Below, piece after piece: positions 19,792-39,245 of a stretch of 64,000 nucleotides of DNA. Each line of letters starts with the position of its first letter. The first letter of the stretch is position 1. Below the pieces are notes generated by a model. That model did not search any database. It had not been told where the DNA came from and was given only the letters and a program-made list of their open reading frames with translations. The DNA is from Spirochaetales bacterium. Its GTDB lineage: Bacteria; Spirochaetota; Spirochaetia; JABMQR01. The stretch is from NCBI GenBank assembly GCA_018399255.1, contig JAGYPA010000018.1, positions 1,060 through 65,059 on the forward strand. The letters run 5' to 3'. Both the position numbers and the translations under genes were made by a program.

Positions 19792-21063
19792 TCAGTTCCC
19801 GCAATGGTTCTGACCAGGCTCCGCCAGAGGAACGGTAACTGCTCCGTCAGGCAGTATCCATATCTTTGCGTTCGCCCCTTTCTGCTGGAGCGCTTCATCC
19901 ACGGCAGCCTGCAGGTCAGAGACAGGCTGGATAAAAATATTTTCCAGAAGCTTGCCTTCCAGTTCCGTCTTTGCCCAGATCTGCGCCCAAGTTGATATTT
20001 CCGCCATCTTGGCAGCTTTGTGAAACCCGAGACGATAGGTCGCCTTGATCTTATCGACCACCTCCTCCGGTGTTTTGCAGGAACTCAGCAGTTCGATATA
20101 GGCTGCTTCCCCCACCCCTTCCCGACAGGCGGAGACAAGAATAAGGATTCCGCCCTCATTCAGCGCCAGCTTACCGTTATCTATAGCCTTCTGAGCCTGA
20201 TAGAGATCCACGTCCATCGGGTATCCGGCGCAGGAGATCACAATATCTGCCTTTTGCGGAATGGTGGTAGTAAAAATTTCGTTGGCGGCAGAAACGGCAT
20301 CATCAAACGAGACCAGTATGTCGCCGGCGGTAACGCGGTAAATGTTGTGAAGCTTGTCCATAACCGTCATGATGGAGAATATTTTTTTATCTTTCAGCGT
20401 TTTCAGGGCATCTACCATATCCATATGGACCGGGTTTCCTGCCAGTTTGAGCGTCTGGGCATCGAGCGATATCGCGTGGCTGTGGTTCTGTTCGATGGTT
20501 CTGTAGGAGGCTATGCCAGGCAGTATCGCTTTGCGCCCTCCCGTGTAGCCGGCAAAGTAATGAGGTTCCACCGACCCGATCGCTATGATCTTATCGGCTT
20601 CGTATCCTTTCCGGTTTATGTACATTTCCGTACCCTGTCCGGAGGTTCCAAGGTAGACCATCTCCTCATCTTTACGGGCGTCATGCACAAAGATCGCATC
20701 GGCAAACCGGTCATAATGACGGCCGAAGATAAACCGGTACTCCTCTTCAGTCGGCCCCCGATGGACCCCGGTGGCAATAATGAATTTCGCATTGGCGGCA
20801 GCCAGGTCATCGGCAATAACATCGAGTACCTGCCGGGTCGGGGTCGGCCGGGTTCCGTCATTGACGATTACCAGCAGTGAGCCGGACCCGTTAATCATCT
20901 CATTATAGTCCAGCGACCCGGAACTGCTGTTCAGGGCATCCCATATCAGCGATTCGGGAGAGCCGGCGGCGGTAAGTTCATTCGGCTCGATCATACCGGC
21001 AAAATTGTGCTCCGGCAGATTTATCTCAATTTTTTTCCGGTTATAGGGAACTGACAGTTTCAT
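19792..21063 (-). CDS. larA: Nickel-pincer-dependent lactate racemase (LarA) family alpha-hydroxyacid racemase/epimerase
   Basis: VNDGTRPTP, ATGVHR, EPHYFAGYTGGRK, GYPMDVDLYQAQK. Confidence 0.88.
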   Translation of the reverse strand: MKLSVPYNRKKIEINLPEHNFAGMIEPNELTAAGSPESLIWDALNSSSGSLDYNEMINGSGSLLVIVNDGTRPTPTRQVLDVIADDLAAANAKFIIATGVHRGPTEEEYRFIFGRHYDRFADAIFVHDARKDEEMVYLGTSGQGTEMYINRKGYEADKIIAIGSVEPHYFAGYTGGRKAILPGIASYRTIEQNHSHAISLDAQTLKLAGNPVHMDMVDALKTLKDKKIFSIMTVMDKLHNIYRVTAGDILVSFDDAVSAANEIFTTTIPQKADIVISCAGYPMDVDLYQAQKAIDNGKLALNEGGILILVSACREGVGEAAYIELLSSCKTPEEVVDKIKATYRLGFHKAAKMAEISTWAQIWAKTELEGKLLENIFIQPVSDLQAAVDEALQQKGANAKIWILPDGAVTVPLAEPGQNHCGN

Positions 21064-21076
21064 AAGGCTGCTCCTG

Positions 21077-21826
21077 TTAAGAATTTTCCAGCTGCTTGCC
21101 TTCAGATAGGGCTGCGGCTTTTCTTAAAGAAATACGGGCATTCTCCCGGGCTTTGCATATGTGCTGATGCATGAGGGATGCCGCTTTGTCGCCGTCCCCC
21201 TCCTTGATCGCCTGGTAGATAGCCCGATGGTCGGCCAGACTCGATTTCGGCTGATTTTTCAGACGCAGGGTGGTTTCCCGGGTTTTATTGAGCAGCGATT
21301 TAGACATCAGCAGCATTTTTTCAAATACGTTATTATGGGTAGCCCGGGCTACAGCTTCATGAAATCCGTTATCCCCGACCAGCCCGATGCCGCCGGCGGC
21401 GATATCAAGCTGCATCAGATCCAGACTTGCAGAAATAGCATTCAGGTCGTCAGTTGTTCGCTGGACAGCAGCAATCCGGGCAAATTCCGTCTCTATGATA
21501 AGGCGGAAGTCCAGCATTTCCATAACCATATTGTCTTCGCTCTCGAGAAATTCGGCAAATGGATCGATTATGGTGTCCAGGGTGATCTCACGGACAAAGG
21601 TTCCGCCCCCGACACCGACCCTCGATTCGAGATATCCGGTTTTCTCCATTATCTTGAGGGCTTCACGGATCGATGCCCGACTGACCTGAAACTGTTCTGC
21701 CAGTTCCCGTTCGCTTGGAAGCTGGTCGCCGGGTATGTAGACTTTATCCTTAATCATCTGCAGAAGAATATTACCGACATGTTCCGATAACCGGCTCTTC
21801 TTGATCGGCTCTATTCTGGCTGTCAT
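21077..21826 (-). CDS. FadR/GntR-family regulator (PdhR/LldR-like)
   Basis: PGDQLPSERELAEQFQVSRASIREAL wHTH; FCD domain DNGFH...ATHN, HRAIYQAI. Confidence 0.93.
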   Translation of the reverse strand: MTARIEPIKKSRLSEHVGNILLQMIKDKVYIPGDQLPSERELAEQFQVSRASIREALKIMEKTGYLESRVGVGGGTFVREITLDTIIDPFAEFLESEDNMVMEMLDFRLIIETEFARIAAVQRTTDDLNAISASLDLMQLDIAAGGIGLVGDNGFHEAVARATHNNVFEKMLLMSKSLLNKTRETTLRLKNQPKSSLADHRAIYQAIKEGDGDKAASLMHQHICKARENARISLRKAAALSEGKQLENS

Positions 21827-21862
21827 ATCTCTACTCTCCTGTCTGCCCTGCTCTGTCCTGCT

Positions 21863-23311
21863 CTAAGAATCCGCCCTTTTTCCGGCAGACCTGCTGCTGC
21901 CGATAGTATGGACTGCAAAGCCTTCAACCGCATGGGCTGCTTCCATTACTGTCTCGCTTATAGTCGGATGGGGATGAACCGTGCTGTAAATTTCCTCAAT
22001 AGTCAGTTCTGACGCTATGGCCAGTGCCATTTCCGCTATAATATCAGTTGCCCGGGGCGACATCAAGTGCGCTCCCAATAGTGCTCCGCTGTTCTTATCG
22101 GTAACAAGCTTGACGAATCCTTCCGTCTCGCCAATGATAACAGCCTTGCTTGCGGCCTTCATCGGGAAGAAGCCTTCAACTGGTTTGAATCCTCTCGCCG
22201 CTGCTTCCCCGGCCGTCAGCCCGACCGATCCGATTTCCGGACGGGTATAGATGCACGACGGGATTATCTGACGGTTGATATAGTTCTTTTTTCCCAGGAT
22301 ATGGTCAACTGCAATTAGAGCGTGTGCAGTGGCGGCATGAGCCAGCATCCAGCCTCCGGTAACATCTCCAATGGCATAGATATCGGGCACCGTTGTCTGC
22401 TGGTGATCATTTACCGGAATACATCCTTTTTGCGTTGGAACTCCCGCGGCTTCCAGCCCTATATCGTCAGTCACCGGTTTCCGCCCGACGGCAATAAAGA
22501 GCCGGTCAGACTGAATGGATTTTTCATCTTCACCAATGGTGATGCGGCAGGTGACACCGGAGCCGGTTCCAGCCGGAGCTACGGTATTTACGGCTGCACC
22601 TGTAATGATCTCCATTCCTTTTTTCTGGAAATCCTTCTTCAGAAGTTCCGCAATTTCTGAATCCATTCGCGGCAGCAGCTGAGGCATCATTTCCACTATG
22701 GTCACCTTGACGCCGAAATCGTGAAAAATGAGCGCGCTTTCAACCCCGATTACTCCGCCCCCGATAATGGTTATGCTCTCCGGCATTTCCAGGGCTTCCA
22801 GAAGCAGCGTATCGCTTGTCCAGTAGTCTATCTGCTCCAGCCCGGGGATGGGCGGCACTGAGGGTTCTGAGCCTGTTGCCAGTATAATCCTGGCGGCTGT
22901 TATCGTCCGCTCCGTCTCTTTTCCAAGGCAGGATATGGTGTGGTTATCGGTCAAGGTCCCTGCTGCGGTTATTATTTCTGCTCCATGATACTTCAGCAGG
23001 CCTTTTACGCCGGAACGGAGTTTGCGGACGGTTTTCTCACGGTATGCATAGACTTTATCCATGTCAAATCCCGGTTCGGTCCGGGTTATGCCGAACTCAT
23101 GAGCTCGTCGAACTGTCTCCAGCACTTCACCGCTGTGCAGCATGGCTTTTGTTGGAATGCAGCCGCGGTTGAGGCAGGTGCCTCCAAGGGTATCTTTTTC
23201 TATGAGCGCTGTCCGCAGTCCCTGCCGTGCAGCATGAATCGCTGCGACGTAGCCGCCGGGCCCGGAGCCGATTATAACCAGGTCGTAGTCGTAGGTTGGT
23301 TCAAATGCCAT
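21863..23311 (-). CDS. lpdA: Dihydrolipoyl dehydrogenase (E3)
   Basis: GSGPGGY, GGTCLNRGCIPTK, IIGGGVIG, HPHPTISE. Confidence 0.95.
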   Translation of the reverse strand: MAFEPTYDYDLVIIGSGPGGYVAAIHAARQGLRTALIEKDTLGGTCLNRGCIPTKAMLHSGEVLETVRRAHEFGITRTEPGFDMDKVYAYREKTVRKLRSGVKGLLKYHGAEIITAAGTLTDNHTISCLGKETERTITAARIILATGSEPSVPPIPGLEQIDYWTSDTLLLEALEMPESITIIGGGVIGVESALIFHDFGVKVTIVEMMPQLLPRMDSEIAELLKKDFQKKGMEIITGAAVNTVAPAGTGSGVTCRITIGEDEKSIQSDRLFIAVGRKPVTDDIGLEAAGVPTQKGCIPVNDHQQTTVPDIYAIGDVTGGWMLAHAATAHALIAVDHILGKKNYINRQIIPSCIYTRPEIGSVGLTAGEAAARGFKPVEGFFPMKAASKAVIIGETEGFVKLVTDKNSGALLGAHLMSPRATDIIAEMALAIASELTIEEIYSTVHPHPTISETVMEAAHAVEGFAVHTIGSSRSAGKRADS

Positions 23312-23330: not shown

Positions 23331-24707
23331 TCAAATCATCAGGAGGGGATTTTGCAGAATCCCTCTCAAAGTCTGCAGAAATTCTGCTGCCGGAGCACCA
23401 TCAATAAGACGGTGGTCATAGGTAAGCGAAAGCGTGCAGACAGGTCGGACAGCAAGCTGCTTTTCTATGACTACCGGTCTGTCGGTTATCGAGCCTACAG
23501 CGAGTATGCAGCTTTCGGGCCGGTTTATAATTGCCGTAAAACTATCGAGGCCGTACATTCCGAGGTTCGATATAGTAAACCGTCCGCCGGCAAGATCTTC
23601 CGGCTGCAGGGTATTGCTGCGTGCTGCAGCGGCAAGCCGCTTGCTTTCGGCATGGATATCCTCGAGGCTGCGCTGGTCGGCATGGGAAATCACCGGCACA
23701 ATCAATCCCTCATCCAGGGCAACGGCTATACCGATATTGACATCCCTGAACTGCAGAATATTTCCATTACTCCCTATCTGCCGGTTAATGCGGGGATGGC
23801 GCTTAAGGGCTGCGGCTGCTGCCCTGACAATAATGTCATTGAATGAAACTGCCCGTCCTTCGGCTTTGAAAGCTGCCCGCAGTCGTACTGCTTCGCTCAT
23901 GTCTATATCCATCCGGTGAACGGCCTGTGCTGCTTCATCGAGACTGCTGCGCATCCTTTCGGCTATGACTTTCCTCATGCCGCGCATTGGAATCTCCTCA
24001 GCCCCATACTCTGCAGATTCCGGATAACTTCCAGTCGTCTTCTGCCGGGCAGCGGCGGCTATATCTGCTGAATATATTTTACCCCGAGGTCCGGTACCGG
24101 TAATTGAGGCCAGATCCTGACCGGTTCGTTCGGCCAGTTTCCTGGCTGTCGGGGTGGCGGATGGCTGTCCCGGGGCGCTTGATCCGGCAGAAACTGCGGC
24201 AGCAAGCACATCCCGTTCAATAACGAGTCCTTCGGGGCCGGTTCCGGTGATTTTCTGCAAGTCCAGCTGCTTTTCTTCGGCTGTCTTCCGGGCTCGGGGG
24301 GTGACAAACTTCCTGCCTGACGCACCAGCCGGAGCTTCAGTCGGAGCTTCAGTCGGAGCTTCAATCATGGATTCAGTCGGGGATTCAGTCGGGGATTCAG
24401 CCGGGGATTCAGTCGGAGCTTCAGTCGGAGGGTTTTTCGGGGCACCCGTCAGTGATGAAACATCCTCCCCTGCCTCCCCGATATATCCGATGATCTCGGT
24501 TATCGGAACCGTCTCCCCCTCTTTGCGAAGAACTGCCAGCAAAGTTCCCGATGCCGGAGCATCAATATCAATATTGAGTTTGTCGGTTTCAATTTCGAAG
24601 AGGGTCTCACCCTCCTTGACGGTATCTCCAACTTGTTTCTTCCATTCAATAATCGTACCTTCGGTCATTTGCAGACCCTGTTTCGGCATGATGATTTTTT
24701 CAGCCAT
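23331..24707 (-). CDS. Dihydrolipoamide acyltransferase (E2), one lipoyl domain and two E3-binding domains (AcoC-like)
   Basis: Lipoyl-Lys EIETDK, two TPxARK.A...ITGTGP.G domains, catalytic DHRLIDG. Confidence 0.93.
   Translation of the reverse strand: MAEKIIMPKQGLQMTEGTIIEWKKQVGDTVKEGETLFEIETDKLNIDIDAPASGTLLAVLRKEGETVPITEIIGYIGEAGEDVSSLTGAPKNPPTEAPTESPAESPTESPTESMIEAPTEAPTEAPAGASGRKFVTPRARKTAEEKQLDLQKITGTGPEGLVIERDVLAAAVSAGSSAPGQPSATPTARKLAERTGQDLASITGTGPRGKIYSADIAAAARQKTTGSYPESAEYGAEEIPMRGMRKVIAERMRSSLDEAAQAVHRMDIDMSEAVRLRAAFKAEGRAVSFNDIIVRAAAAALKRHPRINRQIGSNGNILQFRDVNIGIAVALDEGLIVPVISHADQRSLEDIHAESKRLAAAARSNTLQPEDLAGGRFTISNLGMYGLDSFTAIINRPESCILAVGSITDRPVVIEKQLAVRPVCTLSLTYDHRLIDGAPAAEFLQTLRGILQNPLLMI
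24331..24430. repeat. 12-bp tandem repeat (8+ units) encoding the E2 PTEA/PTES linker
   Basis: Variants of GGAGCTTCAGTC and GGGGATTCAGTC. Confidence 0.9.
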
Positions 24708-24715: not shown

Positions 24716-25696
24716 CTATCTGTAGCAGATTTTCCTGACACCTTCGACAATGTCATCAACTCCCGGCACAACCGCATTCTCCAGCACCAGGCTGAAGGGC
24801 AATGTACAGGCTTTAGCACCAAGTCGAGCAACGGGGGCATCCAGATAGACAAAGGCCTTTTCTGTCAGCTCCGCGGCAATCTCAGCTCCGATGCCCATGG
24901 TTCGGTGAGCCTCGTGAACAACAAGAGCCCTGCCTGTTTTCTTGACCGATCCCACAAACGTATCCATATCCATAGGGAGTATAGTCCGCGGATCGATCAC
25001 TTCGACATCAATTCCCTCACCGGACAGTTTTTCTGCCGCTTCCAGAGCCCGGGAGACCATCAGGGAGGTTGCGATTACCGTAACATCGGCTCCTTCCCGC
25101 ATAATTGCAGCCTTGCCGAAGGGTATGGAAAAATCTGGATCATCGGGAACTTCGCCGCTTACTGCATACAGGGCCTTGTGCTCGAAAAACATAATGGGGT
25201 TATTGTCCCGTATGGCGGTTCTCAGCAGTCCTGCGGCATCGGCAGGGGTTGCGGGCATTGCCACTTTCAGACCCGGGATATGGGTAAAGAAGGCTTCCAC
25301 GCTTTGCGAGTGGGTGCCGGCATTCCCGCGCCCGATACCCTGCTGTCCTCGGATAACAAGCGGAAGCGTCGCCTTGCCGCCGTACATATAGCGTATCTTG
25401 GCTGCCTGGTTGAGGATCTGATCCATGGCTACATAGGTGAAATCCATATACATGAGCTCGATAACCGGGCGCATTCCCGTCAGAGATGCTCCAACACCTG
25501 CTCCGATAAATCCGGCTTCCGAGATGGGGGTATTGCGAACCCGTTCCTTCCCGAATTCTTCCATCAATCCGCGGGTACACCCGAAGATACCTCCCTGTTC
25601 GGCAATATCCTCTCCCATGACAAACACCCGCTCGTCCCGCTGCATTTCCTGCTGAAGCACATCGCGAATGGCAACTGCATATTTTTTCGTACTCAT
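24716..25696 (-). CDS. ThDP-dependent dehydrogenase E1 beta subunit (acetoin/2-oxoacid dehydrogenase type)
   Basis: MGEDI, VRNTPISEAG, HSQSVEA, FFEHKALY, EVIDPRT. Confidence 0.93.
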   Translation of the reverse strand: MSTKKYAVAIRDVLQQEMQRDERVFVMGEDIAEQGGIFGCTRGLMEEFGKERVRNTPISEAGFIGAGVGASLTGMRPVIELMYMDFTYVAMDQILNQAAKIRYMYGGKATLPLVIRGQQGIGRGNAGTHSQSVEAFFTHIPGLKVAMPATPADAAGLLRTAIRDNNPIMFFEHKALYAVSGEVPDDPDFSIPFGKAAIMREGADVTVIATSLMVSRALEAAEKLSGEGIDVEVIDPRTILPMDMDTFVGSVKKTGRALVVHEAHRTMGIGAEIAAELTEKAFVYLDAPVARLGAKACTLPFSLVLENAVVPGVDDIVEGVRKICYR

Positions 25697-25708: not shown

Positions 25709-26668
25709 CTAATTTTCAAAATAGACATTTTCGAGGACAGTTGCCGGATCGGGATCCGGGCTGCTCAGAGCAAACTCGGCGGCAGCATCGATCTGGCTGG
25801 ATGCATCGCTGTGCATCTTTTCCATCTCCTTCTCTGTAAGTATTTTGTGCTCACGGAGATACTCTTCAAGCCGCTTGATGGGGCATTTCTGCTTCCAGAT
25901 TTCCACATCTTCCTTGCTCCGGTAGACCTGCGGATCTCCCGTCCAATGGCCGTACCAGCGATACGTCTTGCACTCGATCAGCGATGGGCCTTTACCCGCT
26001 TTTGCCCGGGCCACGGCCTTCTTTACGGCCTTATCGATATCAAATACATCATTCCCGTCGACAACTTCGCCAGGTATATCGTAGGCCTTTGCCCGTACCG
26101 CAATATCTTTTACCGAGGTGCTTACATCCACATGAGTCGATATGCCGAACTGGTTGTTTTCGCAGACAAAGATTATCGGCAGCTTCCAGACGGCAGCCAG
26201 ATTGAGAGCCTCATGAAAGGCTCCCTCGTTGGCGGCGCCGTCACCGAAAAAGGCCACGGCGATCTGGTCGGTTCCCCGGAGCTTTGCGCTGAGCGCCGCT
26301 CCGGACGCTATCGGCAGACCGGCAGCCACGATAGCATTCGCGCCAAGGTTGCCTTTCGTAACATCGGCAATATGCATTGACCCGCCGCGGCCCAGACAGT
26401 AACCGGTAGACTTGCCCATCAGCTCAGCCATGGCCAAGTCTGGTTCAGCTCCTTTAGCTATGCAGTGTCCATGTCCGCGGTGAGTACTGGTTATATAGTC
26501 CTCATCCCGCAAATGGGAGCAGACTGTCGCCGCCACCGCCTCCTGTCCGGTACACAGATGCACCGATCCGCGCAGCTGATTGGACTCGAAGAGGCTCAGC
26601 GCCTTATCCTCAAAATTCCTTATTGTCAGCATTGTTTTGTAGATCCATTCCAAACGCTTGTTATCCAT
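25709..26668 (-). CDS. ThDP-dependent dehydrogenase E1 alpha subunit (AcoA-like)
   Basis: GQEAVA, STHRGHGH, GRGGSMH, GDGAANEG...ENN ThDP motif, TYRWYGH. Confidence 0.93.
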   Translation of the reverse strand: MDNKRLEWIYKTMLTIRNFEDKALSLFESNQLRGSVHLCTGQEAVAATVCSHLRDEDYITSTHRGHGHCIAKGAEPDLAMAELMGKSTGYCLGRGGSMHIADVTKGNLGANAIVAAGLPIASGAALSAKLRGTDQIAVAFFGDGAANEGAFHEALNLAAVWKLPIIFVCENNQFGISTHVDVSTSVKDIAVRAKAYDIPGEVVDGNDVFDIDKAVKKAVARAKAGKGPSLIECKTYRWYGHWTGDPQVYRSKEDVEIWKQKCPIKRLEEYLREHKILTEKEMEKMHSDASSQIDAAAEFALSSPDPDPATVLENVYFEN

Positions 26669-26715: not shown

Positions 26716-27594
26716 TTATTTTCCCTTGATAAGTTGTTCCACTATTTCCACAAGATGCTCAGTTCCTTCGGCAATATGAACTCCCGCGGCCCGCAGAACT
26801 GCTTCCTTGTTTTCGGCAGATCCTTCTCCATCAGGTGACACTATTGCTCCGGCATGCCCCATGCTGGTATCCTTCGGGGCATTTTTCCCGGCTATGAGAG
26901 CGACAACGGGTTTCGTGACATGCTCGCTTATATAGGCAGCCGCCAGCTCCTCTTCGCCTCCGCCGATTTCCCCGATCATGACAATAATTTCCGTCTGTTC
27001 ATCCGCCTCAAAAAGCGGCAGCATATCCACAAAAGGGGACCCGGGAATCATGTCGCCGCCGACCCCGATACAGGTAGACTGGCCGATGCCTTTCTGCTGC
27101 ATCAGAAACACCGTTTCATAGGCGTTGGTCGCACTGCGGGACATCAGTCCGACAGAACCTTCGCTGAATATCCGATGGGCCATAAATCCCGCCTTCGCTT
27201 TACCCGGCGATATGATCCCGAAGGAGTTCGGCCCTATCAGCCGGCATCCTTTCTCTCTGGCCAGATGATGGAGCCTGAGCATGTCATGAACCGGAACACC
27301 TTCCGCAATGGTGATAACCAGAGGAATACCGGAAATGATGGCTTCATACGCCGCTCCGTACATGAATTTCGGGGGAACAAACAGCACCGCCGCGTTTGCC
27401 CCATGCTTCACCTTCGCCTCCATGACGGTATTATATACCGGAACGCCGTGAACTTCCGCGCCCCCTTTTCCGGGAGTTACCCCGGCAACTACCTGCGTAC
27501 CGTATATCAGCATCTGCTCGGTATGGAAGGCGCCTTCGCGACCGGTTATTCCCTGCACTATCAGCCTTGTCTCGTTATCGATCAAAAAACTCAT
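26716..27594 (-). CDS. sucD: Succinate-CoA ligase (ADP-forming) alpha subunit, divergent paralogue
   Basis: QGITGREG, GVTPGKGG, IGEIGG, phospho-His motif MGHAGA. Confidence 0.88.
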   Translation of the reverse strand: MSFLIDNETRLIVQGITGREGAFHTEQMLIYGTQVVAGVTPGKGGAEVHGVPVYNTVMEAKVKHGANAAVLFVPPKFMYGAAYEAIISGIPLVITIAEGVPVHDMLRLHHLAREKGCRLIGPNSFGIISPGKAKAGFMAHRIFSEGSVGLMSRSATNAYETVFLMQQKGIGQSTCIGVGGDMIPGSPFVDMLPLFEADEQTEIIVMIGEIGGGEEELAAAYISEHVTKPVVALIAGKNAPKDTSMGHAGAIVSPDGEGSAENKEAVLRAAGVHIAEGTEHLVEIVEQLIKGK

Positions 27595-30237: not shown

Positions 30238-30308
30238 GAAATTCCAAAATGCAAACTTCTAACCAAAACGTCGTTCTTGCTTTTTGCTAGAGCCACAATT
30301 GGAATTTC
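30238..30308 (-). repeat. Intergenic palindromic repeat/MITE-like element, copy 2
   Basis: 10-bp terminal inverted repeats GAAATTCCAA/TTGGAATTTC. Core is 29/32 identical to 12819-12850 in inverse orientation. Confidence 0.7.
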
Positions 30309-30441
30309 CTCTGCCAATAAAAAAAGTCCGGAACCGTTAACTGAGTTTTTTCGCAACGGCAAAAATATCAGGAGGAAAACGGTTCCGAACCACACAATTC
30401 TATTAAGTTGAAGATATTGAAAACAGTTAACCAACTCCTCC

Positions 30442-31775: not shown

Positions 31776-32591
31776 CTACGTTGAAAGTGCCGTACGCAAT
31801 ACAGCAATGTCCTTGCGCAGCAGTTCTATCGGATCGTCATGCACAGTGCACAACGGAGGCATATCATAATAGTTCTCGCTCACCAGCCATCCGTCATAGC
31901 CGCGCCGCTTGAGAACTTCCAGACTGGCGAAAAAATCTGCATCCCCGGTTCCCAGCAGCGCCCCGCTGAGCTCCTTGTTCCTGCCGTCCTTGACGTGCAC
32001 CTCGACGACATACGGGTACAGTTCCTCCAGAACACAGGGTGTGCAGTCGTCATTGGCCAGGTAGTAGTTCTGAAAATCAAAGTAGAGGGCAAAATTGACG
32101 GAATCAACCTCCTCCACCATGCGGAGAGTCTGTGCGACACTCAGGGTGTTTTCCGCGGCTATGGTTATTCCTGATCCCGCAGCTGCCTTGCAGGCTTCCC
32201 GAAGTACGTCAACCACAATTCTGAAGTGATGTTCCGTCTGTATATAACTTTTCTCAAAAGTTGGAACCATAATCAGGGGAATGTCCATATACTCAGACGC
32301 TTCAACAGCCGCTAATATCCCTCTTCGAACAATTTCATGCTCAACGGAACCCGGCTCGTCTACAAGACTGTAGTAATCACCGGTTCGTACCGCCATTGAG
32401 GGAAACTCAATTCCATAGCGATGTGCAAATTCCAGATACATATCCCGGACATACTTCCGTGATTTGGTGAATCCCCGTTCCCAGGGGCCGATATCAAGCT
32501 GGATTCCATCCAGCCCCACATCTGCAGCCAATTTACAGGCTGCCGGTCCTTCGATCGGCAATGCCCATTCACATGCTCCAATCTTATTCAT
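31776..32591 (-). CDS. Sugar (phosphate) isomerase/epimerase, xylose-isomerase-like TIM barrel
   Basis: Metal ligand pattern AAEN, YFDFQN, HVKD, SEN; GALLGTGDADF. Confidence 0.85.
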   Translation of the reverse strand: MNKIGACEWALPIEGPAACKLAADVGLDGIQLDIGPWERGFTKSRKYVRDMYLEFAHRYGIEFPSMAVRTGDYYSLVDEPGSVEHEIVRRGILAAVEASEYMDIPLIMVPTFEKSYIQTEHHFRIVVDVLREACKAAAGSGITIAAENTLSVAQTLRMVEEVDSVNFALYFDFQNYYLANDDCTPCVLEELYPYVVEVHVKDGRNKELSGALLGTGDADFFASLEVLKRRGYDGWLVSENYYDMPPLCTVHDDPIELLRKDIAVLRTALST

Positions 32592-32605: not shown

Positions 32606-33619
32606 TTATACGGGACCGATTTCCGAAATACGAACCGGTCGATTCTCCTGCCATGACTTTTTTGCCGCCATGGATAAAACAACCGCTTTCCGACCGTCCG
32701 AACCTGTTACGGGAGGCGGCGTATCGTGATAGAGACAATCTACAAAAGCCTGTATCTCTCCATAGAATGCCTCAGGGTACCGTTCAATATTAAAATAGAG
32801 AGGAACATCACTATGGTGTCCCTGAGGATTGGTATATTCCACCCTGGTCGGAGTCTCATTATTTCCGAAAGCACAGGACTGCGTTCCGAAGACCTCCACA
32901 CGCTGATCGTAGCTGTAGCCAGTCCGTCGGGAATTGTTTATGGATCCGACCGCCCCGCTCTCGAATTTCAAGGTGACCATCGTAGTATCGAGGTCTCCCA
33001 GTTCACCAATCCTTTCGTCAACCAGAACACTGCCCGCAGCGTACACTTCGTATATCTCTTCGCCGGAAAGAAAGCGGGCCATATCAAAATCGTGAACAGT
33101 AGTGTCAAAAAAGATCCCGCCGCAGACTTTCAGGTACTCCAGATGGGGAGGCTGCGGATCCCGGCTGGTAATATTGATAATCATGGGTTTTCCAACGATC
33201 CCGTCATCCACCAGTTTTTTCACTCCGCTGAAGGTAGGATCAAAGCGGCGGTTGAAACCCACCATAAACTTGACCCCCTTCTTTTCGGCATAAGCCAGCA
33301 CCTCATCAATAGCCGCCAGAGTTGTGGCTATCGGCTTTTCACAGAATATATGTACCCCGGCATCTGCAGCAGCCCGTATAACTTCTTCATGAGTATCGGT
33401 AGAGGTGGCTATGACCACACCATCAAGCTGCTGCTCCGAAAGCAGTTTCCGGTAGTCATCGTACCGGGCAACTCCATCGATGCCGACCAGTTCTGCCCGC
33501 TCCATGGTAATGTCGCTCACGCACACAAGCTCGGCTTCAGGAATCCGGTAAGCAATGTTTTTGGAATGAATCTGGCCTTGACGTCCCATACCCAGAACAC
33601 CCAGTCGAACTCTCTTCAT
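32606..33619 (-). CDS. iolG: Inositol 2-dehydrogenase-like Gfo/Idh/MocA oxidoreductase
   Basis: GMGRQG, FCEKP, GFNRRFDP, SRDP, DTTVHDFDMARF, YDQRVEVFG. Confidence 0.8.
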   Translation of the reverse strand: MKRVRLGVLGMGRQGQIHSKNIAYRIPEAELVCVSDITMERAELVGIDGVARYDDYRKLLSEQQLDGVVIATSTDTHEEVIRAAADAGVHIFCEKPIATTLAAIDEVLAYAEKKGVKFMVGFNRRFDPTFSGVKKLVDDGIVGKPMIINITSRDPQPPHLEYLKVCGGIFFDTTVHDFDMARFLSGEEIYEVYAAGSVLVDERIGELGDLDTTMVTLKFESGAVGSINNSRRTGYSYDQRVEVFGTQSCAFGNNETPTRVEYTNPQGHHSDVPLYFNIERYPEAFYGEIQAFVDCLYHDTPPPVTGSDGRKAVVLSMAAKKSWQENRPVRISEIGPV

Positions 33620-33668
33620 AGCTTTTCTCTCTCCATTCTTCATTAAGGTTGTTTTACCCGCAGCCCTG

Positions 33669-35168
33669 TCAGACATGCGCAATGGCTTTAAGCAGCGTGG
33701 TTTCGGTAACTTCAGCATCGGTAAATACGCCGGTCACCCTGCCTGAACGCATAGCGATAATCCTGTCCGATACGCCGATAATTTCCGGCATTTCAGAACT
33801 GATAACCAGAACTGCATATCCTGATTCAGCTGCCTTGGCGATAAGTTTGTGGATTTCCGCCTTCGACCCGACATCGATACCCCGTGTCGGTTCATCAAGT
33901 ATAAGCAGATCGGGGGTCATGCTGAGCCATTTTGCAATAACAATTTTCTGCTGGTTTCCCCCGCTCAAATTGACAACTTTCTGATAGGCCCCGGGGGTTG
34001 ATATTGACAGCTTATCTTTGTACTCCTCATACATTTCCATCTCGACAGCGGTATCGAGAAAACCGCGGTTTTTTATCCAGGGCAGCTTAGCCAGACTGAT
34101 ATTCTCCTTGCATGACATTTTAAGCACGAGCCCCTGCTCCTTCCTGTCCTCCGGCACAAATCCGATCCCGATTTTCACGGCTTGCTCGGTACTCCTGATC
34201 GAGACTTCCTTACCGTTAATCCACACTCTGCCTGAGTCCGGCTGCCGTGCTCCAAAAATGGTTTCCGCTACTTCGGAGCGGCCGGCTCCCACAAGGCCAT
34301 ACAACCCGACAACCTCTCCTTTGCGGATGGAGAAGCTGATATTTTCAAAAAGACCAGCCTTGGAAAGGTTTTCCACTTTAAGGACTTCTTTCCCTTTTAC
34401 CGCCTGATTTTTATGAAAATAATCATCGAGAATGCGCCCGATCATCAGTTTGGTAATATCTTCAAGCTGAACTTCAGCGGTTACCAGACTTCCGGTATTC
34501 TGTCCGTCCCGCAGAACTTCCACTCTGTCTGTTATCTGAAAGACCTCATCCATTTTATGGGTTATATAGATTACAGAGACTTTTTTCTCTTTGAGCTTCC
34601 TGATATTCATAAACAGGATTTCTTTCTCCGCTTCGGTAAGCGATGAGGTAGGTTCATCAAAAATGACCACTTTAGCCCCCATCGAAAGCGCGCGGGCAAT
34701 CTCTACCATCTGCTGGCGGGATATTGAAAGGTTGCCGACAAGCTCCCGAGGATCGATATCAAGTTCCAGATCCGCCATAATCTTTCCAGCCATTTCATTC
34801 AGTCTTCTCCAGTCTATCAGCCCCCGTTTTGTTCTGGGCAGGTTGCCAAGATAGATATTTTCGGCAACGCTCAGTTCGGAAACCAGGGAAAGCTCCTGAA
34901 ATATCAGGATCAGTCCAGCCTTTTTAGCTTCGAGCGGATTGGAGAAGCTGACTGTTTTTCCATCCAGAATAATGCCGCCGCTGCCGTGGTCCGGATAAAA
35001 AACCCCTGAAAGAGTTTTCATCAAGGTCGACTTGCCGGCCCCGTTCTCACCCACTACAGCAAGAACTTCCCCTTTGCGGACCTTCAGGTTGACATTCGAA
35101 AGGGCTTTTACTCCCGGAAATGTTTTTGAAATATTCTTGACTTCCAGAATTATCTGTTCTTCATTCAT
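33669..35168 (-). CDS. Sugar ABC transporter ATP-binding protein (RbsA/MglA type, two NBDs)
   Basis: GENGAGKSTL, FDEPT, LSGGNQQK, DEPTRGIDVG. Confidence 0.96.
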   Translation of the reverse strand: MNEEQIILEVKNISKTFPGVKALSNVNLKVRKGEVLAVVGENGAGKSTLMKTLSGVFYPDHGSGGIILDGKTVSFSNPLEAKKAGLILIFQELSLVSELSVAENIYLGNLPRTKRGLIDWRRLNEMAGKIMADLELDIDPRELVGNLSISRQQMVEIARALSMGAKVVIFDEPTSSLTEAEKEILFMNIRKLKEKKVSVIYITHKMDEVFQITDRVEVLRDGQNTGSLVTAEVQLEDITKLMIGRILDDYFHKNQAVKGKEVLKVENLSKAGLFENISFSIRKGEVVGLYGLVGAGRSEVAETIFGARQPDSGRVWINGKEVSIRSTEQAVKIGIGFVPEDRKEQGLVLKMSCKENISLAKLPWIKNRGFLDTAVEMEMYEEYKDKLSISTPGAYQKVVNLSGGNQQKIVIAKWLSMTPDLLILDEPTRGIDVGSKAEIHKLIAKAAESGYAVLVISSEMPEIIGVSDRIIAMRSGRVTGVFTDAEVTETTLLKAIAHV

Positions 35169-35335: not shown

Positions 35336-36304
35336 TTAGAAATTAGGTCTTTCGAACTGATCCATGTTTGCTTTTGTAACTACAGGAGTCTCGAAAAAGT
35401 TCCAGAAGGGAACTTCTTCGCCGTTAGCCAGCTTTACAGCAACTTCAACAGCTTTTTTGGCATCTTCTGCCGGAGACTGGTATACGGAACCGTAAATGAA
35501 GCCTTCTTCCATGGCATCGTAGCCTTCACCAAACATACAGGCACTGGTCATAACGATGTCCCCTGCCCGTCCTGCTTCCTTCAAGGCATTGAGAGCGCCG
35601 ATACCGATGTTATCGTCAGCAACATACACACCATCGATATTCTGGTACTTTGTCAGAAGATTTTCCATAACCCGGGTAGCTTTCTCACGGTTCCAGTCTG
35701 TCGGTTCGGTTGCCAGAATCTCGATTCCAGGGGCATCATCGGCAATTTTGTCCTGAAAGCCTTCTGATCTGCGGATGGCCGTCACATAACCGGGCATACC
35801 CATCAGCTCTACTACATTTCCTTCTCCGTCAAGAGCTTCGATCATACCAACGGCTGCATTAACGCCTTCTTCGTAGGTATCCGGTCCTGCAAATCCTTTA
35901 ACATACTGGTAGCCTGATTCATCAATCAATGAGTTACAGATAAGCACTGGAATTCCAGCATCAAATGCTTTTTTTGCAGCAGGTACGATTGCCTTGCCGT
36001 TTACCGGCCAGATCACGATAACATCAACATTTTTCTGGATCAGGTCTTCTACCTGATTAATCTGAAGGGCAACATCACCACCGGCATCCAGCTGAATTGC
36101 GGATACACCCTCGAGCGCTGCAACGGTGTCACGGAAAACCTGGTCATGGGTTGTCTGATAACTGTCAATACCCACATTATTGGCGGTATGCCCAATTACA
36201 ATGGTCCCATCATCTGTCGCTTCAGCATCACCTGTCGCAAAAACCAGTCCGCTGACAGCCAGCATCAAAACGATCAATACAGTAAGAATTCTCTTCATAG
36301 TCAT
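35336..36304 (-). CDS. Sugar ABC periplasmic binding protein (RbsB-like)
   Basis: Signal peptide ending FATGDAE; QINQVEDLIQKNVDVI, RRSEGF, DWNREKA. Confidence 0.92.
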   Translation of the reverse strand: MTMKRILTVLIVLMLAVSGLVFATGDAEATDDGTIVIGHTANNVGIDSYQTTHDQVFRDTVAALEGVSAIQLDAGGDVALQINQVEDLIQKNVDVIVIWPVNGKAIVPAAKKAFDAGIPVLICNSLIDESGYQYVKGFAGPDTYEEGVNAAVGMIEALDGEGNVVELMGMPGYVTAIRRSEGFQDKIADDAPGIEILATEPTDWNREKATRVMENLLTKYQNIDGVYVADDNIGIGALNALKEAGRAGDIVMTSACMFGEGYDAMEEGFIYGSVYQSPAEDAKKAVEVAVKLANGEEVPFWNFFETPVVTKANMDQFERPNF

Positions 36305-36362
36305 TCTCCTTTTCTCCTTACATAAAATTCTTTCAGGCATGCACCATGCCTGCTTTTTCAAA

Positions 36363-37319
36363 TCATGAATCGGTCACCCTGAGCGCATTGCGTGCCTGCT
36401 TGAAGCGGGAATCGGCAAATACCACAAGAATCAGGATAATCCCCATCAACAGCATGTTGTAGTAACTCTGAACATTCAAAAGGTTAAGCGCATTCTGAAT
36501 TACTCCGATGGTAAGAACGCCGCCCATGGTATGGACAATGCTTCCGTAACCGCCGTTAAGGCTGGTTCCGCCGAGTACTACTGTTGCAATAATCATCAGG
36601 TTCTGGTCCGGCCATCCGAGTCCGGGTGTAGCTGCATTCATTCTGGATGCAAGCAGGACTCCTCCGACAGCAGCAGCTAGGCTGCATAGAATAAAATTGA
36701 CCATAACGGTCCGGTTTACCCTGATTCCAGCGTTTTCCGCCGCTTCATAGTTCCCGCCGACAGCATAGGTATTACGTCCATGCGGGGTTTTTCTGAGAAC
36801 AAATTCGGCTATAACGGCAATGACCAGCATTATTATGAACAGGGTGGGAATCCCGAGGACAGAACTTGAGCCGAAATCGCTGAATACCATCCTCTCACCG
36901 ATCAGGGCATCTTCCTTGGTATAAATATAAATCAATCCCCGGACACCGATAAAGGAACCCAAGGTCACGACAAAAGCATTGATTTTAGCCCGTGCAACCA
37001 GAAATCCGTTAACCGCCCCTATCCCGGCTCCTGCCAGAAGGGCTATAATTACGGCTGGAAATATCCCGAGCGGCTGCAGCCCGACTGCCAGAGCGGCACT
37101 GAAACCCATGACGGTTCCGACTGAGAGATCGAAGAACCCATTGATCATCAGATAGGTCATCCCTACAGCCATAACCCCGTTAACGGAAGACTGAAGAAGT
37201 ATGTTCAGTAAATTTCTGCGGCGAATGAACTCCGGTGCCAGGATAGTGATGATAACTACCAGCAGCAGCAGAATTGCCCAGATCGGCTTCTTTTTAAAAA
37301 ACCTCAGTATTTTTTTCAT
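36363..37319 (-). CDS. Sugar ABC permease (RbsC-like)
   Basis: FDLSVG, GRNTYAVGGN, VVLGGTSLNGG. Confidence 0.93.
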   Translation of the reverse strand: MKKILRFFKKKPIWAILLLLVVIITILAPEFIRRRNLLNILLQSSVNGVMAVGMTYLMINGFFDLSVGTVMGFSAALAVGLQPLGIFPAVIIALLAGAGIGAVNGFLVARAKINAFVVTLGSFIGVRGLIYIYTKEDALIGERMVFSDFGSSSVLGIPTLFIIMLVIAVIAEFVLRKTPHGRNTYAVGGNYEAAENAGIRVNRTVMVNFILCSLAAAVGGVLLASRMNAATPGLGWPDQNLMIIATVVLGGTSLNGGYGSIVHTMGGVLTIGVIQNALNLLNVQSYYNMLLMGIILILVVFADSRFKQARNALRVTDS

Positions 37320-38284
37320 GCCAGCACCTTCCCGCGCTTAGACGCAATGTCGATCCATACCACAACCACCAGTATCACCCATTGAGCAACCCACTGGGTG
37401 TAGTAAGGAAAACCGAGCAGGATAAATCCATTCATGAGCATGCCCACAATAAGTATTCCGAGAAAAGACTTGAAAATATTCCCTTCACCACCGGTAAGGC
37501 TTGTTCCGCCAAGAATTACTCCCGTGATGACCTGAAATTCATAGCCTTCTCCAATATAGTTCTGGGCAGCCATAATCCTGGAGCCGAGTACAATGCCTCC
37601 GATCCCTGTTACAAGGCCTGAGGCAATAAAGGTAAGCATAATGATCCGCGTCTCTTTTATTCCTGAAAACTTACTGGCAACCTGGTTGCCGCCGACTGCC
37701 AGAAGCTGCCGGCCAAAAACAGTTTTCATGAGAATTACCGCGAATATTATAATGACGACTGCCAGAATTATGACGGGAAACGGAATGCCAAGCACAAATC
37801 CGCGGCCGATAAACCCGAACCAGGTTTCATCAGGGTCAGTCAGCCGCGAGTACTTGCCCCCGGTATAGATGAGGGTTACCGCCTGAATAACTCCCAGCAG
37901 CCCCAGGGTGATAATCATCGAGTTCAGCTTGAGATATCCAATCAGGTACCCGGCAAGCGTACCGGAGAGCATCCCGACCAGTAAGGCGACGATCATAGCC
38001 GGAATCGGGCCGATCTTGTCATGCAGACTGATAACCACGACAGTTGTCAGGGAGGTCAGGGAACCGACCGACAAGTCAAAATTGCCTCCGATGATGACAA
38101 ATGTCATTCCACAGGCAATTATTCCCAATATCGAAACCTGCCGCAGGACCAGTATAATATTTCCATAGGTGAGAAACACATCGGACGCTATTGAGAAAAA
38201 GATGACCAGCAGCAGAAAAGCGATAACCAGTCCCTGTTTCTCGGCAAACCCGAGTGCCTTTTTCTTTATTACCGACAGCTGCAT
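37316..38284 (-). CDS. Sugar ABC permease (RbsC-like)
   Basis: FDLSVG, GRQLLAVGGN, VILGGTSLTGGEG. GGAG RBS before ATG 38284. Confidence 0.93.
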   Translation of the reverse strand: MQLSVIKKKALGFAEKQGLVIAFLLLVIFFSIASDVFLTYGNIILVLRQVSILGIIACGMTFVIIGGNFDLSVGSLTSLTTVVVISLHDKIGPIPAMIVALLVGMLSGTLAGYLIGYLKLNSMIITLGLLGVIQAVTLIYTGGKYSRLTDPDETWFGFIGRGFVLGIPFPVIILAVVIIIFAVILMKTVFGRQLLAVGGNQVASKFSGIKETRIIMLTFIASGLVTGIGGIVLGSRIMAAQNYIGEGYEFQVITGVILGGTSLTGGEGNIFKSFLGILIVGMLMNGFILLGFPYYTQWVAQWVILVVVVWIDIASKRGKVLA

Positions 38285-38365
38285 AAACAGCTCCTCCTCT
38301 TTTTCTAAAAATTGCCGGGACCGGGATGGTGCTGCGGGCATTCTCCCGGTCCTGTATCGGTAATC

Positions 38366-39160
38366 CTAGGTAAAATCCAACCCGCCGTTAACGTTGATCA
38401 GCTGCCCTGTCACATAAGAACCGGACGGGGTAGCCAGCCATATGATGGCACCAGCCATGTCCTTGCCGTACCCGTAGCGATGAAGCGGAATCTCGTTCAG
38501 TTCCAGTTCCTTCATTTCATCAAAGGTTATGCCGCGGGCATCTGCATCTGCCTGAACAAAGGCCCAATGCATTTCTGATGCGGCCAGCCCGGGACAGAGA
38601 GCGTTGACATTGACATTGTAGGGAGCCAGCTCAAGAGCGAGTGCCTGGGTCATAGTATGCACAGCTCCTTTGGAAGCGCCGTAGGTGGCAGAACCGGCGT
38701 GACCGACCTTTCCGAAAAACGAACCGGTATTCACAATGGATCCGCTTTTCTGCTTGATCATCTGGATCGCGGCATATTTGCAGCCGAAAAATTCACCTTT
38801 GAAGTTTACCGCCAGAATTCTGTCAATCTGGCTCTCTTCAGTCTCCCAGACATTTCCGGTATCCATGTGCATGCCGGCGTTGTTTGCCATAATATCGAGC
38901 TTGCCGAGTTTTTCGACACAGCCTTCAACCAGGGCTTTCACTTCCATCTCGCTGGAGACATCCAGAACAACTGCATACCCTTTGTTATCCGGATTTGCAG
39001 CCTTGACTTCTTCAAAGGATTCCATAACCAGTTCCAGTTTGTCAGCCATGACAACATGGACTCCTTCACTTGCCAGCGTTTCTGCAATTCCCTTGCCGAT
39101 ACCCCGGGCAGCTCCAGTCACAATTGCTACTTTACCTTGAACGTTGCGAAAGTCACTCAT
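38366..39160 (-). CDS. Short-chain dehydrogenase/reductase (polyol/sugar dehydrogenase-like, probably NAD-dependent)
   Basis: TGAARGIG, NNAG, YGASK, NALCPG, GQLINVNGG. Asp follows beta-2 (MAD). Confidence 0.92.
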   Translation of the reverse strand: MSDFRNVQGKVAIVTGAARGIGKGIAETLASEGVHVVMADKLELVMESFEEVKAANPDNKGYAVVLDVSSEMEVKALVEGCVEKLGKLDIMANNAGMHMDTGNVWETEESQIDRILAVNFKGEFFGCKYAAIQMIKQKSGSIVNTGSFFGKVGHAGSATYGASKGAVHTMTQALALELAPYNVNVNALCPGLAASEMHWAFVQADADARGITFDEMKELELNEIPLHRYGYGKDMAGAIIWLATPSGSYVTGQLINVNGGLDFT

Positions 39161-39187
39161 ATTTCTTCTCCTGATTTTAGTATCTAT

Positions 39188-39245
39188 ATGGTAATACCAT
39201 TTAAACATTGGAATTCACATCTGTCAACTAAAAAGGTATTACATT
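39188..39245 (-). promoter_or_regulatory. Promoter of the catabolic operon with FadR-type operator
   Basis: Minus strand TTGACA (39222-39227)-17 nt-TTAAAT. Palindrome ATGGT-AAT-ACCAT (39188-39200) lies over the start region; a degenerate second site lies near 39232. Confidence 0.7.

Follow-up and report, generated by a model that had tools for sequence, protein, structure and literature searches.

Acetoin and 2,3-butanediol are catabolised by way of a butanediol dehydrogenase, AcoABCL and an acetaldehyde dehydrogenase. A gene cluster that resembles this system in part occurs in a stretch of 64,000 nucleotides (the window; positions 1060–65059 of contig C90) from the genome of a salt-lake spirochaete, an assembly of 4.4 Mb in 246 contigs that is 90.5% complete. 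The cluster comprises 17 open reading frames (ORFs), all co-directional on the minus strand, running from 39208 down to 19792 in two blocks. Like the acetoin system, it has a short-chain dehydrogenase/reductase (SDR), E1 alpha and beta subunits of the heterotetramer type, a lipoyl-bearing E2, an E3 and an aldehyde-oxidising enzyme, and the two may have a common logic, in which a diol is converted to an acyloin and this in turn to an acyl-CoA plus an aldehyde. In the spirochaete, however, these genes stand amid sugar or polyol uptake genes together with an IolG-type dehydrogenase, a TIM barrel protein and an M24-family enzyme, and the aldehyde dehydrogenase (ALDH) is nearest to succinate-semialdehyde dehydrogenase (SSADH) rather than to acetaldehyde dehydrogenase, and is followed by SucCD.

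Inositol catabolism provides two further comparisons. The Thermotoga maritima pathway, which proceeds through IolG, IolM, IolN and IolO (PMC5931981 and PMC12632266, both drawn on in part), is like the present cluster in having a kinase-free early part with two dehydrogenations, a hydrolase, a TIM barrel protein and an ABC transporter. The models for IolN (NF041098) and IolO (NF041099) do not, however, match the M24 and TIM barrel proteins of the window, and the downstream part in Thermotoga is a uronate route without E1–E3, ALDH or SucCD. With the canonical iol pathway (IolG, E, D, B, C and J) the cluster shares an IolG equivalog and an inositol-type ABC transporter, but IolD, IolE, IolB, IolC and IolJ are absent from it (for IolB, IolC and IolJ according to a general Pfam scan of the 17 genes, no search with an aimed model having been made).

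The pairing of a CoA-acylating SSADH with succinyl-CoA synthetase is also familiar (Clostridium kluyveri-type SucD, 8cei). The ALDH of the cluster matches 8cei over its full length (453.8 bits), SucCD score over the model cut-offs, and the same succession from aldehyde through acyl-CoA to acid and ATP is predicted here; the difference lies in its coupling to E1–E3 and to a polyol cluster. In resorcinol degradation by Aromatoleum anaerobium, the hydroxybenzoquinone (HBQ) dehydrogenase BqdLMS cleaves a carbocyclic C6 compound (PMC10084136, drawn on in part). That system differs in its aromatic substrate, nitrate-reducing host and sigma-54 control. BqdLMS resemble components of pyruvate dehydrogenase (PDH), with acetate and malate as the products; if this is right, their C2 plus C4 outcome parallels the one proposed here. 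Finally, the M24 enzyme has the fold of DddP and the prolidases, and resembles DddP over its whole length, N-terminal domain included; it differs from both in scoring far below the family cut-offs, in carrying Cys for the second Asp and in a gene context of carbohydrate and 2-oxoacid metabolism. Literature searches, with supplementary files outside their scope, found no published description of the cluster, in agreement with the first-pass annotation, whose author knew of no described pathway with this gene set.

Conservation of the cluster and the predicted route

The cluster is a coherent, mobile, uncharacterised catabolic system, through which a polyol or cyclitol is probably taken up and split into an acyl-CoA and a C4 aldehyde acid, with a yield of ATP. 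The fullest explanation, extending from uptake to LarA and given a probability of about 40%, is that of a kinase-free catabolic island of two operons, in which gene content, motifs, co-conservation and a shared operator are observed and we infer the substrate, every chemical step and the direction of flux. The island would have spread horizontally, a single FCD-type GntR repressor controlling the two operons. The CUT2 ABC transporter of block 1 would bring in a neutral polyol or cyclitol, to be oxidised and rearranged by the IolG-type dehydrogenase, a TIM barrel isomerase or dehydratase and the SDR, and the M24 metalloenzyme would open or cleave the product hydrolytically to a linear keto-hydroxy acid. 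An acetoin-dehydrogenase-like E1–E2–E3 complex would then convert an acyloin of the form R-CO-CHOH-...-COOH to a short acyl-CoA and a C4 aldehyde acid of the succinate-semialdehyde type (succinate, malate or tartrate semialdehyde). From this aldehyde the acylating ALDH would produce C4-acyl-CoA and NAD(P)H, the SucCD-type ligase would release the C4 dicarboxylate with formation of ATP, and the LarA homologue would set the configuration of the 2-hydroxy-dicarboxylate.

The gene families on which this route is built were correctly named in the first-pass annotation: the ORF listing and the Pfam and NCBIfam scans bear out 17 co-directional genes of the families it gave, and the scans find no kinase, aldolase, IolD, IolB or IolC family among them, as it had stated. 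Catalytic motifs are intact in SucD (GHAGA), E2 (lipoyl ETDK and DHRxxDG), E1 alpha (GDG...NN), E3 (CxxxxC), ALDH (NGIIC), LarA (His/His/Lys/His) and the SDR (YxxxK).

Conservation was assessed in 22 loci from species-representative genomes and 80 from metagenomes (L numbers), onto which the window proteins and six extra queries were mapped by tblastn (E<=1e-8, coverage of at least 45%). M24 is found at this coverage in 99 of the 102 loci. Where M24 has at least 3 kb on both sides (39 loci), E1 alpha or beta is present in 31 and the SDR in 27, and a LarA or isocitrate-dehydrogenase-family gene in 13. The linkage of M24 with E1 and SDR includes Desulfobacteraceae, Fuchsiella, and Planctomycete-like and Firmicute-like contigs, and the core conserved across phyla is the M24 hydrolase, the SDR and the thiamine pyrophosphate (TPP)-dependent E1 alpha/beta. 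It is the SDR that most often adjoins M24 in other phyla, with 58–84% identity beside M24 in many loci. A spirochaete band, defined by M24 identity of at least 78%, holds 23 loci, 16 of them with at least 8 kb of flank; ALDH, SucC and SucD occur together in 14 of these 16, and E1 alpha and beta in 12. In L004 all 17 genes are in the same order, and in Ca. Marispirochaeta associata ALDH-SucC-SucD-E1a-E1b-E2-E3 and a GntR gene follow M24 downstream, 13 kb away and on its strand, after a gap with an old yellow enzyme (OYE)/BaiCD-like reductase, a cupin, a methyl-accepting chemotaxis protein and a regulator. Outside the band, none of 37 loci with enough flank has ALDH-SucCD. The two blocks, which had been proposed to be co-conserved, are so in spirochaetes, and M24-E1/E2/E3 linkage recurs in several phyla, but ALDH-SucCD is confined to the spirochaetes.

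The host is one of several carriers of a cluster that is common to several other bacterial phyla. By M24 protein its nearest relatives are uncultured Spirochaetales, Marispirochaeta and Sediminispirochaeta, yet at E<=1e-100 M24 is found in 5 of 60 relatives and in none of 400 further genomes sampled from the whole phylum, and proteins assigned to Desulfobacteraceae, Nitrospinota, Lentisphaeria and Chloroflexi share 64–74% identity with it. This patchy occurrence, together with high identity in distant phyla, points to an accessory, horizontally moving module.

The make-up of the cluster in other lineages bears on the chemistry. In Fuchsiella alkaliacetigena (L022) an ABC transporter, IolG, TIM, SDR, M24, E1a, E1b, E2 and E3 are followed by an aldehyde:ferredoxin oxidoreductase (AOR), an OYE-like reductase and a 128-aa ORF. 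The Firmicute-type loci L092–L095, whose nearest named protein is from Paenibacillus sp. yr247 (79% identical), have a TRAP transporter, RidA, M24, a tartrate dehydrogenase, an SSADH, a cupin, a tartronate-semialdehyde-reductase-like gene and E1a-E1b-E2-E3; in L092 the tartrate dehydrogenase (505 vs a cut-off of 470) and the classical SSADH (TIGR01780, 676 vs 646) both pass their models. Three lineages therefore pair E1/E2 with different oxidisers, an acylating ALDH, an AOR and a classical SSADH, and a free aldehyde intermediate is likely for this reason. A fourth type adds to it, a molybdenum hydroxylase near a paralogous SDR-E1a-E1b-E2 set elsewhere in the genome (C175:27526–35026, L121). 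Such a variety of oxidisers beside E1/E2 would be the signature of acetoin-type cleavage and not of simple oxidative decarboxylation.

It is likely that the aldehyde is a C4 omega-oxo acid and the endpoint a C4 dicarboxylate, since the ALDH is nearest to an acylating SSADH, the Firmicute-type loci have an SSADH, SucCD score over their cut-offs and a malate-racemase-like LarA or tartrate dehydrogenase is recurrent. The CoA-acylating ALDH (28762–30135), with its catalytic Cys in NGIIC, has 8cei, a succinate-semialdehyde dehydrogenase (acetylating), as best solved relative over residues 2–453, and the acetaldehyde dehydrogenase 5j78 scores 301.4; it passes no NCBIfam equivalog (AdhE-N 424; SauS 418 vs 600; EutE-type 374 vs 620). 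A sulfonate pathway (SauS-like ALDH, sulfoacetate-CoA ligase, sulfolactate racemase) is less likely because the ALDH matches SSADH more closely than SauS, and TauE occurs in L062 only. The ADP-forming ligase subunit SucC (27598–28740) passes two curated models narrowly (TIGR01016, 379.1 vs 375.55, and a second, 370.8 vs 370), and SucD (26716–27594), with its GHAGA phosphohistidine motif at 246–250, passes NF004230 (366.6 vs 336). The other SucCD of the genome, on contig C170, is under the cut-offs (317.9 and 300.8), and the cluster copy is the only one over them.

At the end of block 2, the LarA-family racemase/epimerase (19792–21063) is malate-racemase-like, with a sub-cut-off match to NF052593 (395.2 vs 500) and the malate racemase Mar2 (6d6z, 238 bits) as best solved relative. 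Its H102, H168, K178 and H194 align with the catalytic His, His, nickel-pincer nucleotide (NPN)-binding Lys and Ni-binding His of Mar2. In L008 the LarA at the same position is a malate-racemase equivalog (561.3 vs 500); more generally, the place of LarA is held by a malate-racemase equivalog in sister loci and by a tartrate dehydrogenase in other phyla. Malate racemases also epimerise tartrate (PMC11770544, drawn on in part). Sequence cannot decide between succinate, malate and tartrate as the predicted diacid. The C4 semialdehyde back half proposed in the first-pass annotation thus has comparative support, but its glycolyl-CoA and tartrate were guesses, and succinate or malate semialdehyde is at least as fitting; the glycolyl-CoA is as hypothetical as the front half of that scheme, with its cyclitol, 1,3-diketone and M24 ring opening.

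Several observations weigh against the route from polyol to C4 dicarboxylate. E1 is missing in 8 of the 39 well-flanked loci (L018, L020, L027, where the contig ends at SucD, L035, L036, L040, L041 and L054). In a concatenated E1 alpha plus beta tree of 35 rows, in which the near-duplicates L059, L063, L102 and L103 were left out and no named PDH or Aco references were included, the M24-linked E1s fall into more than one clade (4 changes, a number at least as low in 90 of 500 shuffles) and the deep branches are weak. Planctomycete-like contigs (L055 and the related L062 and L079) have a mini-E2, E1a, E1b, SDR and M24, along with an MFS transporter, a VOC or metallo-beta-lactamase protein and a GFO-family oxidoreductase; the mini-E2 (L055:6560–7027, L062:11793–12266) is 155–157 aa long, with lipoyl and E3-binding domains and without the acyltransferase domain. 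No homologue of SDR, IolG or TIM was detected in L092–L095 (ORFs of L092 by Pfam), and the TRAP binding protein of this type is closest to the C4-dicarboxylate protein DctP (250 bits to 9dsy). An M24 gene accompanied by an acid importer and no polyol genes implies that M24 does not have to be a ring-opening enzyme, which weakens that reading, and leaves room for a lyase or decarboxylase role like that of DddP, with a derivative of a C4 diacid as the substrate. For the maturation of LarA, no match to LarC (PF01969) and only 40 bits against a cut-off of 150 for LarE (TIGR00268) were found in the genome, although at 90.5% completeness the absence of larC and larE is not established. The literature searches yielded no description of an M24 protein as a C-C hydrolase, and the PDH-model hits of E1 and E2 would allow a plain 2-oxoacid dehydrogenase.

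The E1–E2–E3 complex and the M24 protein

The last of these points leads to an alternative for the whole of block 2, in which E1–E2–E3 would be an ordinary 2-oxoacid dehydrogenase, of the pyruvate, 2-oxoglutarate or 4-hydroxy-2-oxoglutarate type, passing acetyl-, succinyl- or malyl-CoA directly to SucCD, and ALDH would work backwards as a redox valve, in the manner of succinate reduction by Clostridium kluyveri. E1 beta (24716–25696) passes the PDH subfamily model NF006667 (385.4 vs 321), and PDH models are the best hits of E1 alpha (25709–26668; TIGR03182) and of E2 (23331–24707; TIGR01349; lipoyl, two E3-binding and catalytic domains), both of which nevertheless miss the equivalog cut-offs (372 vs 393.85 and 351 vs 445). 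E3 (21863–23311) is over the cut-off of TIGR01350 (522.7 vs 408.8). That SucCD are over the succinyl-CoA synthetase cut-offs also suits such a reading, as does a tartrate or D-malate dehydrogenase beside M24, which would supply 2-oxoacids, and 8cei is presumably the C. kluyveri enzyme that works physiologically from succinyl-CoA to the aldehyde. On the other hand, the same E1–E3 set is accompanied by a practically irreversible SSADH in L092 and by AOR in Fuchsiella, which argues that a free aldehyde is made and oxidised, and the complex is found in company with genes for sugars and polyols. The latter holds also for rhizobial plasmids, where E1 alpha homologues 52–55% identical lie within sugar clusters. 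In Rhizobium rhododendri (L106) and Sinorhizobium chiapasense (L107), E1 alpha (54–55% identical) is found with E1 beta and E2, and in L107 with E3; both have a SorC regulator and a 441-aa NAD(P)H oxidoreductase, L106 adding a glucitol phosphotransferase system and GutM, and L107 a sugar kinase and a class II fructose-bisphosphate aldolase. The spirochaete genome itself has an E2-E1b-E1a set with a SorC-type sugar regulator and an alpha/beta hydrolase (C170:141137–145414, L120). These rhizobial and C170 sets suggest that sugar-associated 'PDH-like' complexes are a wider unexplained theme. An ordinary 2-oxoacid dehydrogenase is on balance unlikely. For acyloin cleavage as favoured here, an engineered transketolase offers a precedent, with TPP-dependent cleavage of 5-ketogluconate to tartaric semialdehyde (PMC12016104, drawn on in part). 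A lipoate-protein ligase-like gene of the genome (250 bits, cut-off 280) also counts in favour of the route from polyol to C4 dicarboxylate.

The M24 protein (30442–31683; pita-bread fold, Peptidase_M24 117.8 bits) appears from its sequence to represent a distinct subfamily, and is a candidate for the key hydrolase or lyase. All 5004 homologues at E<=1e-10 are named Xaa-Pro peptidases, and the ESM Atlas returned generic M24 clusters only. In alignment with the prolidase 5giu, Cys269 takes the position of the second metal-binding Asp (G-Y-x-x-D motif), and Asp258, His335, Glu368 and Glu382 are kept, aligned with metal ligands. All 14 homologues aligned, which come from several phyla and include a paralogue 42% identical, have this Cys. 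Among solved structures only DddP lyases match over the full length (4s01, 4rzy, 4b28; ∼80–82 bits, residues 17–401), and the catalytic domain aligns best with prolidases (∼80 bits). DddP has six metal ligands, including an extra Asp297 (PMC4108388), and no equivalent of its Asp-x-Asp pair was seen in the alignment.

Several identities for M24 were weighed. Cys269 and the PepQ score (74.6 vs 630) speak against an Xaa-Pro peptidase or prolidase, and the DddP score (NF043017, 108.6 vs 600) and the missing Asp-x-Asp pair against a DddP-type dimethylsulfoniopropionate (DMSP) lyase. DMSP or another sulfonium compound as the substrate disagrees with the same DddP score and with the sugar-type transporter. 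M24 is not IolN, whose model matches on contigs C12 and C46 and nowhere on the window contig, nor is it related to dihydrophloroglucinol cyclohydrolase, which PMC10470551 (drawn on in part) places in the isatin-hydrolase 'cyclase' family. The first-pass identification of M24 as a hydrolase of cyclic 1,3-diketones has no homology behind it, and the known enzyme, IolN, is of a different family; ring opening by M24 is purely hypothetical. The boldest idea is that M24 would be the first C-C bond-breaking enzyme with a pita-bread fold, performing a retro-Claisen opening of an oxidised carbocycle by way of a Cys-containing metal site, and would form with a sugar-acyloin-cleaving E1–E2–E3 an undescribed kinase-free, ATP-yielding route of cyclitol or polyol fermentation, spread by gene transfer in anaerobes of at least five phyla; we consider this unlikely.

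Rather less probable is a further alternative, in which the core of M24, E1–E3 and tartrate dehydrogenase or LarA would form a module dealing with C4 hydroxy-dicarboxylates (tartrate isomers, D-malate). The diacid, or what its oxidation yields, would then be the substrate of M24, acting like DddP as a lyase, a dehydratase or a decarboxylase, and the polyol genes of block 1 would feed the module in some lineages only. The relationship to DddP lyases just described favours it, and so do the immediate neighbours of M24 in many loci, which are tartrate dehydrogenase in L015, L016, L037, L086 and L092–L095 and LarA-like genes in L034–L036 and L038. The Desulfobacteraceae loci L015 and L016 have E1a-E1b-E2-E3-SDR-M24 with a tartrate-dehydrogenase-like gene (in L016 a near-equivalog, 447 bits vs 470), an SDR, a VOC protein, a SpeE-like membrane protein and an ABC transporter, L015 having in addition an OYE-like reductase. 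The C4-dicarboxylate-like TRAP transporter and the tartronate-semialdehyde-reductase-like gene of L092 point the same way. It is the SDR, however, that is the commonest neighbour of M24 (27 of 39 loci), and such a module leaves no role for the SSADH-type aldehyde dehydrogenases; the low DddP score and the differing metal site with Cys269 also speak against it.

Uptake, polyol oxidation and the inositol pathways

Block 1 begins with the SDR (38366–39208; adh_short 180.6 bits; NF005559 217.2, cut-off 215), followed by two CUT2-type ABC permeases (37316–38341 and 36363–37319; BPD_transp_2, 124 and 129.5 bits), a periplasmic sugar/polyol-binding protein (35336–36361; Peripla_BP_4 186.5 bits) and a double-domain ABC ATPase (33669–35168; ABC_tran, 2 stretches, 182.7 bits). 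For the binding protein, all NCBIfam equivalogs are far under cut-off (RbsB 104 vs 337), and its best solved relatives are CUT2 sugar-binding proteins (111–125 bits). The IolG-type GFO/IDH/MocA oxidoreductase (32606–33718; EKP motif) is over the cut-off of the curated myo-inositol dehydrogenase equivalog (TIGR04380, 400 bits vs 355). The xylose-isomerase-like TIM barrel protein (31776–32591; AP_endonuc_2 97.5 bits) has L-ribulose-5-P 3-epimerase as its best NCBIfam hit (49.7 bits, cut-off 317) and is not among the matches of the IolE and IolO models in the genome; from its family it may be an isomerase, epimerase or dehydratase. A related but different arrangement is seen in L101–L103, with a LacI regulator, M24, a Zn-dependent dehydrogenase (best hit IolM, 219 vs 450), a TIM barrel, an SDR, a sodium:solute symporter, GutM and E1a-E1b-E2.

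The genome also has other inositol genes. Contig C113 (45724–49724) carries IolD (889.9 vs 715), IolE (396.9 vs 290) and an IolG paralogue 39% identical to that of the window; the IolE and IolD models (TIGR04379, TIGR04377) match there and not on the window contig. Contig C12 (4137–7180, L122) carries the tagaturonate epimerase UxaE, an IolO-like epimerase and a partial IolN at the contig end. The IolN model has 4 matches in the genome, the best on C46 (148 bits) and C12 (121, cut by the contig end), and the IolO model 9, the best on C12 (294.8, cut-off 300), none of them on C90. From IolN-IolO-UxaE on C12, the genome probably already has a Thermotoga-type route, and with canonical IolD and IolE on C113 the cluster need not serve myo-inositol. 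The cluster of the window is thus probably the third cyclitol-like system of this genome, with a substrate other than plain myo-inositol.

These genes bear directly on the exact scheme of the first-pass annotation, which, with myo-inositol taken as its cyclitol, would have this compound converted by two oxidations to a cyclic 1,3-diketone, opened by M24 to a 5-keto-aldonate and split to glycolyl-CoA and tartrate semialdehyde, the latter continuing by way of tartryl-CoA to tartrate and ATP and to LarA. The IolG score agrees with it, the chemistry as far as 5-keto-L-gluconate is established in T. maritima (in the parts of PMC5931981 and PMC12632266 drawn on), and tartrate is epimerised by malate racemases (likewise PMC11770544). 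It is nevertheless improbable: IolN and IolO belong to other families and are encoded elsewhere in the genome beside UxaE, the genome has canonical IolD and IolE as well, the nearest match of the ALDH is a succinate-semialdehyde enzyme, and no glycolyl-CoA route is visible in the cluster. That the blocks are merely adjacent and unrelated, one for uptake and conversion of an inositol isomer that feeds canonical iol genes and the other a fermentative acyl-CoA/ATP operon, would agree with the terminator-like hairpin between them, the strain-variable stretch at 30225–30314 and the location of canonical iol genes elsewhere, but is very improbable in view of the order kept in spirochaete loci, the M24-E1 adjacency in other phyla and the common operator-like sites.

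Operator-like sites, neighbouring genes and wider meaning

A perfect palindrome, TGGTAATACCA (39189–39199), is a candidate FCD/GntR operator of block 1. It is the sole exact match in the 64 kb, and 3 matches are found with at most one mismatch against 0.51 expected. The site lies upstream of the SDR start codon if translation begins at Met17 (39160), near which the alignments of SDR orthologues begin, with 94–98% coverage in most loci. Before ALDH there is a shortened operator-like sequence, TGGTATACC (30194–30202). In orthologous spirochaete loci TGGT-N3-ACCA, sought strictly, precedes SDR in 5 of 6, and a site of this kind stands before ALDH in 7 of 10 (1 exact, in L004, 4 with 1 mismatch and 2 with 2), none being found in L005, L009 and L011. 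One operator heading both blocks, as first proposed, is therefore present in orthologous loci, but in the window the block 2 site is merely shortened, and for this reason the idea rests more on the comparison than on the window. Downstream of M24, at the end of block 1, is a terminator-like hairpin with U7 (30325–30391, minus strand; -28.9 kcal/mol, z -4.70, none of 200 shuffles equally stable), which supports two transcription units. A scan for consensus promoters and terminators gave counts equal to those of shuffles. The M24-ALDH spacer appears to vary among strains, since many contigs break at 30225–30314; in related strains 88 bases are skipped there with 2 others instead, as seen in one DNA and one RNA-library contig. 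Short contigs 90–99% alike from two metatranscriptome runs of a single study cover 29 of 30 and 22 of 30 bins over both blocks. The identical bins are also covered by that study's DNA runs, and these contigs cannot prove transcription; they are a weak hint for both blocks.

The GntR/FCD regulator of block 2 (21077–21826; GntR 65 bits, FCD 83.4 bits) had been called FadR, of which the family stands and the name does not, the best NCBIfam hits being NanR, PdhR and LldR, all sub-cut-off. An orthologue is at the same place in L004, and there is one after block 2 in Marispirochaeta. A second GntR/FCD regulator (41812–42513, plus strand; LldR/PdhR/NanR-like in NCBIfam, sub-cut-off) is 48% identical to it, and from their sequences both are candidate binders of the TGGT-N3-ACCA sites.

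Divergent from block 1 is the gene for a 792-aa membrane protein (39317–41695, plus strand), the N- and C-terminal thirds of which are hydrophobic, with a spermidine-synthase-like domain in the centre (Pfam Spermine_synth 23.1 bits). Homologues adjoin the cluster in nine loci (tblastn, 39–55% identity: L004, L005, L006, L008, L012, L015, L016, L020 and L024; Pfam-confirmed in L015 and L016), and further ones are found in L029, L030, L039 and L087. This SpeE-like protein is next to or within the cluster in Spirochaetes and Desulfobacteraceae, and its omission contradicts the earlier statement that every enzyme gene had a role in the scheme. Like this protein, the second regulator and the EamA-family transporter that follows it had been passed over in the first-pass annotation. 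The transporter (42521–43411, plus strand; Pfam EamA) is a possible exporter of uncertain membership in the cluster; an EamA gene comes after the LarA-like gene in L036, and a 41% homologue is upstream of SDR in L013. Just downstream of LarA is a sigma-54-dependent response regulator (16756–18102; AtoC-like, 388 bits, cut-off 714), a 40%-identical homologue of which flanks the Desulfobacteraceae-type cluster in L015. A 609-aa ORF after it (14787–16616) may be its partner kinase. Between LarA and this regulator is a 493-aa ORF (18155–19636) without a Pfam or NCBIfam match and without a homologue in the related loci searched.

If the proposed route is true, it would be a new fermentation of abundant polyols or cyclitols that spares the ATP of a kinase, the C4 half providing ATP through substrate-level phosphorylation. 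A large M24 subfamily of more than 5000 proteins named 'Xaa-Pro peptidase' would acquire its first function, and many 'PDH-like' E1/E2 sets in sugar clusters, those of rhizobial plasmids included, would acquire one as well. Cultured carriers are Fuchsiella alkaliacetigena Z-7100, Paenibacillus sp. yr247 and Ca. Marispirochaeta associata JC231. D-malate or tartrate isomers would also have a biological origin in the route, which would account for how common malate racemases and tartrate dehydrogenases are in anaerobes.

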